Shown: one piece after another, positions 9,911 through 42,837 of the stretch
How positions within the stretch are numbered: the stretch's first letter is position 1
How the letters are laid out: the number at the start of each line of letters is the position of its first letter
Assembly: GCA_024234955.1 (NCBI GenBank)
Contig: JACKNK010000006.1
Span: 92,771-156,770 of the forward strand
Direction of reading: 5' to 3'
DNA length: 64,000 nt
From: Gammaproteobacteria bacterium
Lineage (GTDB): Bacteria > Pseudomonadota > Gammaproteobacteria > JACKNK01
Program-made: the position numbers and the translations under genes
The notes under the pieces: model-generated
Told to the model about the DNA's origin: nothing
The model's input: the letters and a program-made list of their open reading frames with translations, nothing else
The model's database searches: none

Positions 9911-11826
<1,916 letters not shown>

Positions 11827-11830
<4 letters not shown>

Positions 11831-13254
11831 ACACCTTCGAGATACCGCCAATCGACGCCGCCGTCTGCGACACCCCAAGTACGGAAAATGCGGGGGCGGC
11901 CACGCGCCGCCCCCGCATCATGTTTGTGGATGACGAGGCGCGAGCGGGTCAGTTGTTCAAGCGCTTCATGGATGACCGCGAGTGCGATTGCATCACCTTC
12001 GTGGACCCGAGCGAAGCCCTGGATGATTTTCGGGGCAACGGCGCGGATCTGGTGGTGACCGACCTCAACATGCCCGGCATGAGCGGCACCGAACTGCTCG
12101 CCGGCGTCCGCGATTACGACCCGGATGTACCGGTGATCATCATCACCGCCTTCTCGACCCTGGAAAGCGCCATCGAGGCGCTCCGGCTGGGGGCCTCGGA
12201 CTTCATCAAGAAGCCCTACGACATGGACGAACTCATCGCCCGGGTCGAGAAACTGCTCGAACAAGGGAACCTGCGGCGCGAAAACCGCCTGCTAAAGCGC
12301 CAGATCACCGACAGTCGTCTTCGTTACGGCATGATCGGCGGATCTCCGGCGCTGCAGCGCGTGCAGAAAATGATCGACAAGATCGCCGACATCCGCTGCA
12401 ACGTGATCATCCAGGGCGAGTCCGGCACCGGCAAGGAACTGGCGGCGCGCGCCATCCACAATCTCGGTCAGGATGCCGATCGGCCCTTCGTGGTGGTCGA
12501 TTGCGGCGCACTTACCGACACCTTGCTGGAAAGCGAGCTGTTCGGGCATGAGAAAGGCGCCTTCACCGGAGCCGCGCATACCCGTAAAGGCCTTCTGGAA
12601 GCGGCATCCGGGGGTACCGTATTCCTGGATGAGATCGGCAATATCTCCGACTCGATGCAGGTCAAGCTGCTGCGCGTGGTGCAGGAAGGTCAGGTCACCC
12701 GGGTCGGCGGCGTGCGCCCGATCCAGATCGATGTCCGCTTTCTGGTCGCCACCAACCGCGACCTCGACCAGATGGTTCGCGACGGCGACTTCCGCCACGA
12801 CCTCTTCCACCGCCTCAACGTCGTCAAACTCACGATGCCCCCGCTGCGTGAGCGCCGCGAGGACATCGGCCAGCTCATCCAGCATTTCATCGATCATTTC
12901 AATGCACGCTACAAACGTAGCGTGGACGGCTTCGACGCCAACGCGATGCGACGCCTGCGTGACTTCGCCTGGCCCGGAAACGTGCGGGAACTTCGTAACC
13001 TGGTCGAGCGTCATATCTGTCTCGCAGACGGTTCGACGCTGACACTCGATGAGACCCTGAACAATGTCGGCCCGATCCAGGACATGGACGGGGATATGCC
13101 GACACTGGAAACCTTGGAAAGACGGTATATCCTGAAGGTCCTCGAATCCTTCGAGGGCAGTCGGGAACAAACGGCACGCGCGCTGGGCATCAACAAGAGC
13201 ACCTTATGGCGCAAGTTGCGTCAATATGAGGAAGAAGGGGTTCCCAACGACTGA
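11827..13254 (+). CDS. sigma54-dependent response regulator (NtrC family)
   Basis: REC 'IMFVDDE...[14 protein letters not shown]', AAA+ '[15 protein letters not shown]', GAFTGA 'EKGAFTGA', C-terminal Fis-type HTH. 4-nt overlap with the kinase. Confidence 0.9.
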
Positions 13255-38999: not shown

Positions 39000-41696
39000 T
39001 CAATGCACGGAAGTTAGTCCGCGACGGGAAGAGAGCAGAGCGACGTCTTTGCGGCTGGTGTTGCGGTGCAGACTATTTAGAACACCTTGCTGGGTTTCGG
39101 GTGTCCAAAAAATCCGCAGATAGTTTCGAGCGCGAGTAATTGCTGTGTAAAAGATGGCGTGAGTAATGTCGTCTTCATTGGCATCGGTGATGACGACTTT
39201 TACAGAGCCATACTCTAGCCCTTGTGCCTTGTGAATCGACACAGCGTAGGCGACCTGAAATGGAACGGATGTGTTCAGCGCGTCATCGTCCTCGTCACTT
39301 GCGTCGTAGTCATAGACAGTGAAACGAACAATCGAATCTCTAATCCAGATCAGGTCAACACCGAGGACATCAAGCTCGGTTAGTGGGCGATCGAGTTCAA
39401 CATCAAAGTTAATCCATCCGCGATCGTACTCTATACCGACGATTCGGCCCTTTAGGTTGTTATAGATAACTGGATGAAATCGCTCGGTTTCGTGGAAAAG
39501 AACGGGGTCGCCGACCTTGTACGTGTTCATGCGCCAGATGACCGCTGGGCTGTGGTTGCTACTCTGCAAAAAGCGGTTGATATTGTTAATGCCATACAAG
39601 CCGTCGTAGTTAAGGCAAAGAATAATTTCATCCTCACCTTGGGGTTCGAACAGCGACTTGTCTAGCACGGTCGAATAGCTGTTGCGAGCGATGCTCTCGG
39701 CAATGTCGTCGTCGATATTTCGAACTTTATTCCAAAAATCTAGTAGGGATGGGTTCGTGGTTCTAAAGGGTGTTGGAAGTTCGAACACAGACGAACCTGG
39801 TATGAATGAGCGCGCGATACCAAACCAGTTGCCGAACTGGATCGACTCAATTTGGTAGACATCACCGACGAGGACAAGCAATTTGAAGGAGACTTTGTTC
39901 ATAACTTTGACCAGGTCTTCATTGCTCACAGTGCTGCATTCATCAATGATGAGAAGGTCGTATTCTGAATCTGCGCCGGATCTAAAAATCTCTTTGCTGA
40001 TGGTTCGGAAAGACGAGTTTTGTGCGGTTACCTTGCGCTTAAGGTTGTCGATAGCAGGATTGGTGTGCGCGAGGAAGAGCTTTTTCTTGTCGTTGAAATA
40101 GTGCGCTATGTGGTCAACCATTGTTGACTTCCCCGTGCCCGCAGCACCGTAGATCAGGGCGACTCGTGACTGACTGAACAACAGCTTGAGCGCTTCGATC
40201 TTGGTTGGATCGTCGATCCTGTGATATGTGCCAGCGAGCCAGCGCTCAACGGCTTGTGTGTATCCGGCGACCTCAGAGGACGCGTACTCCAGAAGTTTCT
40301 CCACGATAGAAACGGTATCGTTCTCGTACCCACGTATGAAAACGTGCCCCTTGTCGAACAAAAGCTCTCGCTCCTTGTGTTTGTAGTACAGATTACCGTT
40401 GTGTGCGGAGATTAAATTGTTTACGTCGCCGTACTCATCCAAGTCGGATGCGGGCGTGTAAAGAACTCCGTGTCGCTCCACATTGTTCTTTACCCGCCGA
40501 GCCAGCAGCTCGTGATTTCGTCCGGTTATGTCAAGGCTTTCGACAAGATCCCAATATCTAGGGTTGTGCCCTGGCAACGACGTACAGAACGGCATCTTGT
40601 CAAATGGAATGCAACCGAATGGAAGCTTCAATCTGGAAAGGGAGTCGCATCCATCGCGGTGATACTGCGGTTTGAGAATTTGGTTTTGCATCCGCAGCAT
40701 GAGATAGCGAATGACGTTATGCCCCGGTACTCTGGATCTGACGATTTGGCGAGCCGCATCCAAAACGGGAAATATCGAAGGCGTGGTTACAGCTGCTGTC
40801 CCAGCGTGCCGGACGCTAATGTACGCATCGTCGGATAAATCGACAAGGTCCAACAAACTATCGGGCCCAGTTGTGAGGCTGCGCATTAAGTGACGGTACT
40901 CTTCGGAATTCGTCCGTACCTTTGTGTCTATGCCAAATAGACGTGCGAAATTGTTGAGCTCACACGGTCTGATAGAAACTTCCCATTCCCGGATTATCGT
41001 GATTGGCATCGACTGGTCTAGCACTTCGATCATGTCGCGCTGAAGCGTCAGCATGGCTGCATATTTGTCCGTCATGTCAATATGAGTGAACGCGATAATT
41101 CGATCAAACTTGTTAACTTTGTTGACCGCGCGATAAAAAGTCACCTCGTAGTAGATGCGACCGCCGACAAAAAACGGACGTGTTTTGTGAATGTAATACC
41201 GGTTGCTGGCGCTGCTGTGAAGTGAACTCGAACGTACTCGATCGATTCGCGCTGCGATCTTTTCGTGGTATTCCCGAAGGGATGGGTCTAGGTCGATCGG
41301 GAAATTTTCTAAGTTATGCAGAATCACAACTCCAAAGTCGTTTTGGAGCAAGCTGCGAAGACGGTGAAGGTATTCGTAGTATTTGAGCATCAATCGCTCA
41401 GAAGAGTCGCCATCTAAAGTGTAGTGGGACGCACTTTTCTGAATGAGTTTGTGAAATTGGCCTAGAAATCTAAATCTTGCCCTGCTTCTGACAAAAGAGA
41501 GACCAGGGCCGACAGCATCGTAGTGGAAGTCAGTATCAGATGGGCCCAGATGGATGCGAACAATCACGCCCTCAACGAGGTTGCGAAGCTGAGAAAGTAT
41601 GTTTTGGGAAAGCAATGTCCGCTGATCAGAAAGCGATTCGATGTTTCGGCATATAACCGCGTCGGCACTCTCTATCTGCTGGCTTACCGTCGTCAT
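39000..41696 (-). CDS. SF1B (RecD/Dda/TraA-like, AAA_30 + UvrD_C_2 type) helicase with ~500-aa N-terminal domain of unknown function
   Basis: C-half has Walker A 'GAAGTGKST', Walker B 'LLIIDECS', 'LVGDVYQ', 'AVSIHKAQGLEY', 'YTAITRARNYL'. The N-half has no recognised motif. The gene is clearly AT-richer than the window. Confidence 0.85.
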   Translation of the reverse strand: MTTVSQQIESADAVICRNIESLSDQRTLLSQNILSQLRNLVEGVIVRIHLGPSDTDFHYDAVGPGLSFVRSRARFRFLGQFHKLIQKSASHYTLDGDSSERLMLKYYEYLHRLRSLLQNDFGVVILHNLENFPIDLDPSLREYHEKIAARIDRVRSSSLHSSASNRYYIHKTRPFFVGGRIYYEVTFYRAVNKVNKFDRIIAFTHIDMTDKYAAMLTLQRDMIEVLDQSMPITIIREWEVSIRPCELNNFARLFGIDTKVRTNSEEYRHLMRSLTTGPDSLLDLVDLSDDAYISVRHAGTAAVTTPSIFPVLDAARQIVRSRVPGHNVIRYLMLRMQNQILKPQYHRDGCDSLSRLKLPFGCIPFDKMPFCTSLPGHNPRYWDLVESLDITGRNHELLARRVKNNVERHGVLYTPASDLDEYGDVNNLISAHNGNLYYKHKERELLFDKGHVFIRGYENDTVSIVEKLLEYASSEVAGYTQAVERWLAGTYHRIDDPTKIEALKLLFSQSRVALIYGAAGTGKSTMVDHIAHYFNDKKKLFLAHTNPAIDNLKRKVTAQNSSFRTISKEIFRSGADSEYDLLIIDECSTVSNEDLVKVMNKVSFKLLVLVGDVYQIESIQFGNWFGIARSFIPGSSVFELPTPFRTTNPSLLDFWNKVRNIDDDIAESIARNSYSTVLDKSLFEPQGEDEIILCLNYDGLYGINNINRFLQSSNHSPAVIWRMNTYKVGDPVLFHETERFHPVIYNNLKGRIVGIEYDRGWINFDVELDRPLTELDVLGVDLIWIRDSIVRFTVYDYDASDEDDDALNTSVPFQVAYAVSIHKAQGLEYGSVKVVITDANEDDITHAIFYTAITRARNYLRIFWTPETQQGVLNSLHRNTSRKDVALLSSRRGLTSVH

Positions 41697-41814
41697 CTAC
41701 TGTCAAATTCCGCTTGGGGTATAAGAATCAATTGTGCCATCGCCGCATTTCTGAGTTAAGAACGCGAGTAGAGCGCGAGGGTCAGTTCTCGCATTGTTGC
41801 GTCGCGGCATGATC

Positions 41815-42111
41815 TTACTCACCGAAATATCCGGCTTCGCTCTGATGCCTGATCGCGAGGATCAATACGGCCTCCTCGCAACGTTCGTAGCTGTACAACG
41901 CGACATAGCCCGAACGACCACGGGAAATTAGTAGTGCTCTCAATCCGTGCTCAGCGGCTCGTCCGATTAAAGGATGATTGGCAAGTACTTCAGTGGCTTC
42001 TGCGATCAGGTCCACCGTCTCGGTGACGGCCGCACGGTCGCTCTCAATGAGGAAGTCAGCAAGACATTTGGGTGCGGCGAGTGCCTGCTCGGAATAGATC
42101 AGTCGCGCCAA
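41815..42111 (-). CDS. Type II toxin, RelE/ParE family
   Basis: 'PLIGRAAEHGLRALLISRGRSGYVALYSYERCEEAVLILAIRHQSEAGY' is the ParE-like C-terminal pattern. 13-nt overlap with the upstream antitoxin. Confidence 0.75.
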   Translation of the reverse strand: MARLIYSEQALAAPKCLADFLIESDRAAVTETVDLIAEATEVLANHPLIGRAAEHGLRALLISRGRSGYVALYSYERCEEAVLILAIRHQSEAGYFGE

Positions 42112-42383
42112 GTCTTGGCCTTCGGTCTTTCTGCGGTGTCACCACTGGCGCGAGCACGCAGGTAGTCATGCACTTCGGCGGCGTCGAAGCCGGTGCCGGA
42201 TGCCAGGGTTTCTGATTCGGCCGCCAGGGCCTCGGCCATGAACTCGGCTCGTTGGGCGGCAGCCGTGGCGGCATCGCGAATAGCGCTTACCATGAATGCG
42301 TGGGGGGTGATTCCCCGAGTCTTGGCGGCTTCCGCTGCGAGTTTCTTGACGTCTTCGGGGAGCTTGAGTGAGGTGGTGGACAT
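42099..42383 (-). CDS. Ribbon-helix-helix antitoxin
   Basis: 'TSLKLPEDVKKLAAEAAKTRGITPHAFMVSAIRDA' RHH fold. Upstream of, and overlapping, the ParE-like toxin. Confidence 0.7.
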   Translation of the reverse strand: MSTTSLKLPEDVKKLAAEAAKTRGITPHAFMVSAIRDAATAAAQRAEFMAEALAAESETLASGTGFDAAEVHDYLRARASGDTAERPKAKTWRD

Positions 42384-42464: not shown

Positions 42465-42755
42465 TTATTCGACGTGTGGTTTGGTCGCCATATCCAGTCC
42501 TACGGCCCGCAACACGGCGAGGGTGGTTTTCAAGGTGGGGTTTCCCCTGTCGCTGAACGAGCGGTAGAGCTGTTCGCGGGACAGGCCGGTATCTCTGGCG
42601 ACCTGGGTCATGCCCTTGGCCCTAGCGACCACGCCCAGGGCCTTGGCGATGTAAGCGGCGTCACCAGTTTCGAAGGCGTCGGCCAGGAAGGTTTCGATGG
42701 CCTCCGGCGTCGTCAACGCGTCGGCGGGGTCGAAGGGGAACAGGATTTCGTTCAT
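42465..42755 (-). CDS. HigA-type addiction-module antidote protein (HTH), no cognate toxin
   Basis: 'FDPADALTTPEAIETFLADAFETGDAAYIAKALGVVARAKGMTQVARDTGLSREQLYRSFS..GNPTLKT'. Only ~80 nt separate it from hicB, leaving no room for the killer partner. Confidence 0.7.
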   Translation of the reverse strand: MNEILFPFDPADALTTPEAIETFLADAFETGDAAYIAKALGVVARAKGMTQVARDTGLSREQLYRSFSDRGNPTLKTTLAVLRAVGLDMATKPHVE

Positions 42756-42837
42756 TTCCTTTGAACTCGGTGTGGAGTTGACGCTCAGACCCGGGCGCAA
42801 GCGAGGGTGTGGGCAAGAGCGTTTGCGGAATTGGTCG

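Follow-up and report, generated by a model that had tools for sequence, protein, structure and literature searches.

The stretch of DNA considered here, 64,000 nucleotides (nt) from a Gammaproteobacteria bacterium (assembly GCA_024234955.1, contig JACKNK010000006.1, positions 92,771 to 156,770 of the forward strand), is referred to below as the window. It carries an open reading frame (ORF) at 39000..41696 on the minus strand that begins with ATG and encodes an 898-amino-acid protein, in which a superfamily 1B (SF1B) helicase follows a long N-terminal module. The gene is an intact, horizontally acquired member of the catalogued family PDC-S53, whose members in other genomes lie in or near defence genes. 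It is reasonably probable that the product provides single-protein immunity against phages or other mobile elements. A first reading made from the sequence alone had proposed a stand-alone defence gene, and the full-length family match, together with the company kept by relatives, supports that proposal at the level of a candidate.

The family assignment comes from PADLOC, which had been suggested as a check on the proposal. The whole protein matches the PDC-S53 model (PDLC05035) with E=0 and 1370 bits, and residues 1-895 align to model positions 1-897 of 900. Other PADLOC matches (PDC-S68, type IV RecD, Nhi, AbiO and GajB) are confined to the helicase core. The PDC systems are genes found nested in BREX, DISARM or type I restriction-modification (RM) operons by a guilt-by-embedding screen, which yielded 145 untested candidates that were curated into PADLOC (Payne, Hughes, Fineran, Jackson, bioRxiv 10.1101/2024.01.29.577857). 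The window gene is a new member of this already catalogued family, and the idea that it defends is not itself new. Pfam sees only the C-terminal half of the protein (AAA_30 at residues 504-660, Viral_helicase1, AAA_19, and UvrD_C_2 at 816-862). The NCBIfam models score far below their cut-offs, with 94.4 bits against 500 for RecD2 (TIGR01448), 81.1 against 310 for RecD (TIGR01447), and 48.7 against 590 for TraA (TIGR02768), the last over residues 499-625 only.

The C-terminal part, about 400 residues, is by its motifs and its predicted structure a complete SF1B ATP-driven helicase core. All of the motifs quoted in the sequence-only reading are present, namely GAAGTGKST (residues 517-525), LLIIDECS (581-588), GDVYQ (611-615), SIHKAQGLEY (820-829) and YTAITRARNYL (850-860). 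Conservation was measured over 95 diverse representatives, whose identity to the query is 34-64%, and K523, D585, E586, Q615 and R855 are kept in at least 97% of them. The whole protein was modelled by AlphaFold2 from a 27-sequence alignment (mean predicted local distance difference test score, pLDDT, 82.6; predicted template modelling score 0.78). When this model is compared with the PDB by Foldseek, the best match is RecD2 (3gpl, E=4.5e-20), followed by the RecD subunit of RecBCD, Pif1 and Dda, and these matches span E=1e-20 to 1e-11. The insertion that had been noticed within the core, DRGWINFDVELDRP...VYDYDASDEDDD, is found at residues 758-805. It belongs to a beta-rich segment with modelled strands at 749-758, 761-768, 783-786 and 789-795, and alignment to RecD2 structures places it at the position of the SH3-like 2B domain, as had been proposed. 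The NCBIfam RecD2 match (residues 654-870) spans this insertion.

The N-terminal 495 residues had been described as matching nothing recognisable, which the profile searches bear out. Neither the whole module nor any of three pieces of it has a Pfam match at E<=10, and a profile of this half finds nothing among PDB sequences. Modelled alone by AlphaFold2 (pLDDT 87.1), it is predicted to be a family-specific module composed of a helical bundle, a barrel resembling an oligonucleotide-binding (OB) fold, and a second helical domain. Foldseek, also suggested as a check, returns no significant PDB match for this model (best E 0.05). The list is dominated by OB-fold proteins that bind single-stranded DNA (ssDNA) (SSB, RPA70N, PriB, LEF-3 and editosome OB proteins), and OB matches appear again in the viral structure library BFVD. 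Besides M1, the only N-terminal residues that are at least 97% conserved are R38, H91, Y331, Q344, F365 and P369. A further set is 90-97% conserved (S90, Y106, Y168, Y183, E184, K196, Y212, E246, H377 and E396), and E100 and R101 are likewise highly conserved. R38 and H91 lie on different structural elements of the model. A conserved stretch in the second helical domain, PFDKMPFCTSLPGHNPRYWD, is also written PFDKMPFC...GHNPR.

The start codon and the state of the gene can be judged from its relatives. Because homologues align from residue 1, and because M1 is kept in at least 97% of the representatives, the ATG that gives an 898-residue product is the correct start. The public gene call (P0002) is 796 amino acids long, covers 89% of the query, and lacks 102 residues (window 41391-41696, minus strand), so that its start is most likely M103. 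If it does start there, about 100 N-terminal residues would be lost from it, among them the near-invariant R38 and H91. Of the 97 alignment columns with conservation of at least 90% among the representatives, the query retains 96, the sole departure being a conservative change of L to M. Since its catalytic motifs are intact as well, this copy of the gene looks functional.

Relatives of the protein are numerous and widely scattered. A word-indexed search in which 8,000 candidates were scored found at least 6,890 clusters at 90% identity, and nearly all of the best 120 listed are 898-904 amino acids long and carry no more specific name than "ATP-dependent RecD-like DNA helicase". When 1.84 billion representatives were searched with a profile of the N-terminal half, 1,224 clusters at 50% identity were found. 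Among the best 150 of these, about 100 proteins have 870-1001 amino acids and the remainder, presumed to be fragments, have 260-860. Every protein among these 150 that is long enough to be complete has the fused architecture of about 900 residues, and therefore the N-terminal module occurs there only in fusion with this helicase. Relatives with 69-79% identity are found in Gammaproteobacteria, Burkholderiales, a delta-proteobacterium, Bacteroidota, Phycisphaerae and Actinomycetales, and those with 41-67% identity in other Actinomycetota, Acinetobacter, Vampirovibrionales, Bacillota, Saccharibacteria and Gracilibacteria. The family spans at least eight phyla, including bacteria of the candidate phyla radiation. 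The closest homologue by best-segment identity (79%), in a delta-proteobacterial metagenome-assembled genome (L013:10001-12694), has 16 stop codons in its one-frame translation; it is either a decayed copy or one with assembly frameshifts, and for its stop codons it was left out of the alignments.

None of 40 relatives of this genome has the gene, and the only other genome of its genus is among those 40. This absence and the 70-79% identity across unrelated phyla together point to frequent horizontal transfer. The composition of the gene is also foreign, as expected of the acquired gene that had been postulated. It was said to be the most AT-rich part of the window, and its 1-kb bins have GC contents of 0.482, 0.512 and 0.491, compared with 0.555 in the next-lowest bin and a usual value of about 0.62 (0.60-0.66). 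At 200-nt resolution, GC stays below about 0.52 from about 39,000 to about 41,900. GC at third codon positions (GC3) is 0.572 in the helicase gene, against 0.65-0.92 in every neighbour except the adjacent ParE-like gene (0.576).

Relatives are repeatedly found in the company of defence genes. In Saccharibacteria (L015) the order is HsdM, two small genes, HsdS, the helicase, a Panacea-type toxin-antitoxin pair, and HsdR, which is a true embedded instance within a type I RM operon. In Actinomycetales (L007) the order is HsdM-HsdS-HsdR-helicase. Other loci hold an Eco57I-type RM system, an AAA_15 ATPase and McrBC (Geomobilimonas, L030); DruA and a kinase with an ORC/CDC6-like domain (a Gammaproteobacterium, L043); an integrase, KfrA and Shedu-like SduA_C (L044); integrase-type genes, a resolvase, an AAA_15/21 ATPase and Rhs (Methylobacter, L045); or an antitoxin and ApeA-HEPN (Thiococcus, L046). 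A PADLOC scan of 112 neighbouring ORFs found type I RM components in 3-4 of 13 loci, and no partner gene is conserved across the relatives' loci examined. The Panacea pair of the Saccharibacteria locus (L015:13328-14426), which consists of an HTH-SocA/Panacea antitoxin gene and a 136-amino-acid partner, sits with the helicase between hsdS and hsdR, and mirrors the toxin-antitoxin surroundings of the helicase in the window.

Two phages of Bacillota, phi1605 and TPDSL_ph1, also carry full-length relatives. In phi1605 the helicase gene stands beside a type IIS restriction enzyme and a methylase; in TPDSL_ph1 it shares the orientation of a repressor, and the genes for polymerase, exonuclease and SSB diverge from it. 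In both phages the gene is placed like an accessory gene expressed in the lysogen, not like one for replication. The sequence-only reading would have given up the defence proposal if homologues belonged consistently to relaxase or conjugation modules or to phage replication modules. They do not, since the phage copies are outside replication clusters and no relaxase or transfer module adjoins the helicase in the relatives examined, where one small mobilisable plasmid has MobB about 3 kb away. The two phages share a 278-amino-acid gene (L040:6146-6982 and L041:6146-6982), with a weak match to phrog_6948, that ends 19 nt before the helicase start. A gene of about 70 amino acids, annotated as a repressor in TPDSL_ph1, follows the pair. 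This arrangement is possibly a three-gene variant of the system; the window has no counterpart of the 278-amino-acid partner.

A mechanism can be outlined from these parts. By analogy with the families that the domains resemble, we infer in which direction the motor runs, that the barrel binds ssDNA, what the target is and what the outcome would be. The SF1B motor, with 5'-3' polarity, would load on 5' ssDNA of the invader with the help of the OB-like barrel. Its substrates may be replication or recombination intermediates, or the entering strand during conjugation. The motor could dismantle such intermediates directly, or its translocation could switch on an activity of the N-terminal module, which would then be an effector or a sensor. 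An active or sensor site might be formed by the R38/H91 pair or by the PFDKMPFC...GHNPR stretch, and neither the bundle that bears R38 and H91 nor the site in that stretch resembles any solved structure. The result would be a block to replication of the invader, possibly by abortive infection. A more specific version would make PDC-S53 a new, self-contained "translocating sensor-effector", in which a RecD2-type motor and an OB-like ssDNA reader drive or unlock an undescribed catalytic or signalling domain through R38/H91, the PFDKMPFC...GHNPR stretch, or both; this we offer only as a tentative idea.

Several observations weigh against an immune role. No effector domain such as a nuclease is recognisable by Pfam at E<=10 or by search of PDB sequences, and the similarity of the barrel to OB folds is statistically weak (E 0.05-1, probability 0.75-0.98, target-normalised TM-score 0.4-0.5). 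In the window, no known defence system adjoins the helicase, whose neighbours of that kind are toxin-antitoxin pairs only. The searched literature contained no experimental test of PDC-S53 and did not name it. In a cold-seep study, 8 PADLOC candidates were assayed, PDC-S53 not among them, and only 4 protected, so that candidate status is in itself weak evidence. Finally, PHROGs family 325, "Dda-like helicase", matches residues 1-873, and matches the N-terminal half alone with E=4.9e-14, which means that there are phage-borne relatives that could serve replication.

This last match leads to the view that the protein is a housekeeping helicase of mobile elements, acting in replication, recombination or transfer as Dda and Pif1 do, and that the window copy is left-over cargo of a decayed element. 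Members of the family do occur in two phage genomes and on seven plasmids, RecD-like helicases of giant viruses match weakly in BFVD, and integrases, an IS91 transposase or a resolvase adjoin the gene in several loci. In Methylomonas (L031-L033) the gene lies with an integrase and IS91, and one assembly (GCA_032142695.1; L031, L033) has two identical copies, each placed after a tyrosine integrase and an IS91-family Y2 transposase and before the gene for an NA37 nucleoid-associated protein. These duplicates suggest an active mobile unit that carries the helicase. The carriage is rare, however, at 2 of 50,697 phage records and 7 of 72,556 plasmid records (E<=1e-30), compared with the at least 6,890 clusters noted above. 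Many loci have no element genes within 7 kb, the Saccharibacteria copy is embedded between hsdS and hsdR, and in both phages the helicase is divergent from the primase, polymerase and exonuclease genes and stands beside RM or methylase genes or a repressor. We regard this explanation as unlikely.

A cryptic nuclease or RNase gated by the motor is a sub-case of the defence proposal. On this view the bundle would be a catalytic domain, either HEPN-like but divergent or otherwise new, that works through R38 and H91; the helicase and OB module would switch it on at invader ssDNA, and it would kill the infected cell. The near-invariance of R38 and H91 and the high conservation of S90, Y106, E100 and R101 speak for it, but the HEPN domain itself finds no support. 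The Rx4-6H motif that a HEPN four-helix bundle should conserve is lacking: R76-H82 (R-x5-H) alone has the spacing, and it is not conserved. No HEPN or other Pfam match occurs at E<=10, PDB sequences give no match, and no HEPN structure is among the 50 best Foldseek PDB matches to the whole 495-residue model. The loop that carries H91 is also the least confident part of the whole-protein model (pLDDT below 50 at residues 90-94). This version is accordingly doubtful. An ordinary host DNA-repair helicase, orthologous to RecD2 or RecD, is strongly disfavoured and would be a great surprise. The core is structurally closest to these two proteins, and one homologue lies beside recB-like and recD-like genes. 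The RecD2 orthologue is nevertheless rejected on its NCBIfam score, far under the equivalog cut-off, and the RecD score falls similarly short. Absence from all 40 relatives, foreign composition and high identity across phyla speak against a repair gene as well, and RecD and RecD2 have no such 495-residue N-terminal module.

The features of the gene and of its surroundings are collected in Table 1.

Table 1. Features of the helicase gene and its island, in window coordinates
Feature	Position	Strand	Basis or remark
Complete helicase gene, PDC-S53 member	39000..41696	-	ORF and translation, 898 aa plus stop; PADLOC match
Six-helix bundle, residues 1-155	41232..41696	-	AlphaFold2 models; S90-H91 loop at nt 41412-41435
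Five-strand OB-like beta-barrel, residues 163-240	40977..41210	-	Modelled strands 163-177, 180-189, 200-204, 213-225, 228-240
Second helical domain, residues 244-495	40212..40967	-	pLDDT 88-96 over most
Conserved stretch PFDKMPFCTSLPGHNPRYWD, residues 364-383	40548-40607	-	Within second helical domain
SF1B (RecD2/Pif1/Dda-type) helicase core, residues 496-898	39003..40211	-	Pfam, partial NCBIfam RecD2 match, Foldseek
Walker A	40122-40148	-	
Walker B (DE)	39933-39956	-	
GDVYQ	39852-39866	-	
Motifs V/VI	39117-39239	-	
Beta-rich insertion in domain 2A, residues ~746-810	39267..39461	-	AlphaFold2 model; acidic tail SDEDDD
ParD/ParE	36113-36657	+	Left of helicase
MNT/HepT	36848-37653	+	Left of helicase
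BrnT/BrnA-like genes	37775-38330	+	Left of helicase
CopG-like gene	38356-38763	+	Left of helicase
ParE-like toxin	41815-42111	-	Directly upstream of helicase, same strand
TacA-like antitoxin	42099-42383	-	Upstream of helicase, paired with ParE-like toxin
HigA-like gene	42465-42800	-	Right of helicase
GCAACAATGNNNGANCTGACCCC copies in window	33156, 37703, 38358, 38737, 38901	+	Motif search
GCAACAATGNNNGANCTGACCCC copy in window	41778	-	Motif search
Two full GCAACAATGNNNGANCTGACCCC copies	38737-38759, 38901-38923	+	3' of helicase stop; degenerate copies on to ~38990
Inverted GCAACAATGNNNGANCTGACCCC copy	41778..41800	-	In 118-nt gap between ParE-like gene and helicase start codon

The helicase gene had been described as set among toxin-antitoxin modules, and pairs are indeed found on both sides of it. 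Such a setting fits an island of variable immunity and addiction genes. The island is bordered by genes that look like core genes: on its left side ComA-ComB and the gene for a pentameric ligand-gated ion channel, on its right one for an MMPL transporter. The ParE-like toxin gene has a GC3 near that of the helicase gene, unlike the other toxin-antitoxin genes, and the two genes may have arrived together or be co-transcribed. HepT is present in a single copy in this genome. A promoter and terminator scan gave counts no higher than in shuffled sequence, and Rfam and tRNA scans of the window found nothing. The synteny of the flanks is uninformative, as the flanking MMPL protein is only 52-53% identical in amino acids to its counterparts in the nearest genomes, and the one congeneric genome lacks the ion-channel gene. 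Because the nearest genomes are too distant, the empty insertion site is not reconstructable.

The gene was also said to be bounded by repeated motifs, and copies of a 23-nt motif, GCAACAATGNNNGANCTGACCCC, do occur on both sides of it (38737 and 38901 on the plus strand, 41778 on the minus strand). The window contains 6 matches where 0.03 are expected by chance. Arms at 38730-38758 and 41779-41807 form a 29-nt inverted repeat, 90% complementary, that brackets the helicase. The 3.29-Mb assembly has the motif in two places only, both variable islands: this one and a cluster at C2:504-507.7 kb on another contig. It is absent from 44 loci of other genomes and, among the loci compared, confined to the two that come from this genome. 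We therefore assign it to the host genome and not to the vehicle of the helicase, and reject its membership in a mobile unit with the helicase. In the second island (C2:504006-507750; L034:6007-9750), inverted copies flank a gene for a 288-amino-acid IS200-like Y1 (HUH) transposase. That island adjoins Rhs toxin cassettes and has a head-to-head doublet of the motif at about C2:507422-507469. Just before it, at L034:5590-5630 (C2 about 503,590), lies a sequence like the 3' end of a tRNA or tmRNA (...GGCAGTTCGATTCTGTCCCCGGCCACCA), which suggests that the second island was inserted at a tRNA-type site. Our best guess is that the motif is an element like the repetitive extragenic palindromes (REP) and is linked to the Y1 transposase as a low-copy pair of the REP/RAYT type.

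The word "cassette", which the sequence-only reading had used for the gene, is not to be taken in the sense of an integron cassette, because the motif is not attC-like. An attC site is an imperfect hairpin of about 60-120 nt with R'' and R' boxes at the cassette boundary. In the window, the five regions that bear the motif fold no better than shuffled sequence (z -0.4 to +0.9), on which ground the integron cassette was rejected. Two attC-like repeats near the C1 integrase fold as long hairpins (z -2.8 and -4.0; 0 of 200 shuffles match). These are classical attC hairpins of about 89 nt (CTAAC...GTTAGG), located at L048:5583-5671 and 11795-11883. Integron integrases that score above the NCBIfam cut-off are all on other contigs than the window (C1:781920, C2:460633 and C1:116209); those at C1:781920-782858 (+) and C2:460633-461571 (-) are intact, and the one at C1:116016-116940 (-) is interrupted. 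The integrons of this genome are sedentary chromosomal ones, separate from the island in the window.

If PDC-S53 does act in defence, it would be an immune system of one gene that is very abundant and very mobile, with about 75% identity across phyla. Because its 500-residue front half is without counterpart among solved structures, its mechanism would probably be new. Should the sensor-effector idea also prove true, the family would be among the most widespread uncharacterised single-gene immune systems, with more than 1,200 clusters at 50% identity. The value of this window is modest, being one more intact member in the toxin-antitoxin island of a sulfur-oxidiser. Its products are a confident domain map and a set of near-invariant residues to mutate (R38, H91, Y331, Q344, F365, P369, K523 and D585/E586). 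The survey of relatives gives independent confirmation that PDC-S53 is embedded in RM operons, and the family is a good experimental target.

The protein may finally be compared with known systems that contain related helicases. The relaxase-helicases TraA, TrwC and TraI share a RecD-like helicase domain, to which the TIGR02768 match corresponds. The window protein has no HUH relaxase domain by Pfam, and only its P-loop region matches the TraA and TraI relaxase models, with 28-49 bits against cut-offs of 590-1317, so that a relaxase or conjugation module was rejected. PDC-S68, the second-best PADLOC family (80 bits), has a common helicase core, but it matches only residues 509-626 and 794-868, and its models, of 1200-1270 amino acids, have a different N-terminal architecture. 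Phage Dda and Pif1 have the SF1B fold, and the PHROGs 325 profile aligns along the whole protein and takes in part of the N-terminal module; T4 Dda (439 amino acids) and Pif1 nevertheless lack that module, and the two phage-borne relatives lie outside replication gene clusters.

Nhi and AbiO are, like the candidate proposed here, single-protein anti-phage factors built on an SF1 helicase, and their P-loop domains match (9.8e-12 for Nhi, 2.6e-10 for AbiO). The matches are limited to residues 505-660, the N-terminal module bears no relation to theirs, and Nhi has a recognisable nuclease domain, whereas none is detected in the window protein. Deinococcus radiodurans RecD2 (PDB 3E1S, 3GPL) and E. 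coli RecD share the SF1B core and the SH3-like 2B insertion, and Foldseek ranks them first (E=4.5e-20 to about 1e-14). Sequence identity to them is 12-18%; they are core repair genes that lack the bundle, the OB-like barrel and the helical module, while the window protein is a mobile accessory. The likeness to PDC-S53, in contrast, extends from end to end of the model: both are single genes for proteins of about 899 amino acids, with relatives embedded in type I RM operons. The window copy differs in that its neighbours are toxin-antitoxin pairs and no known defence system surrounds it, and nothing structural sets it apart from the family.

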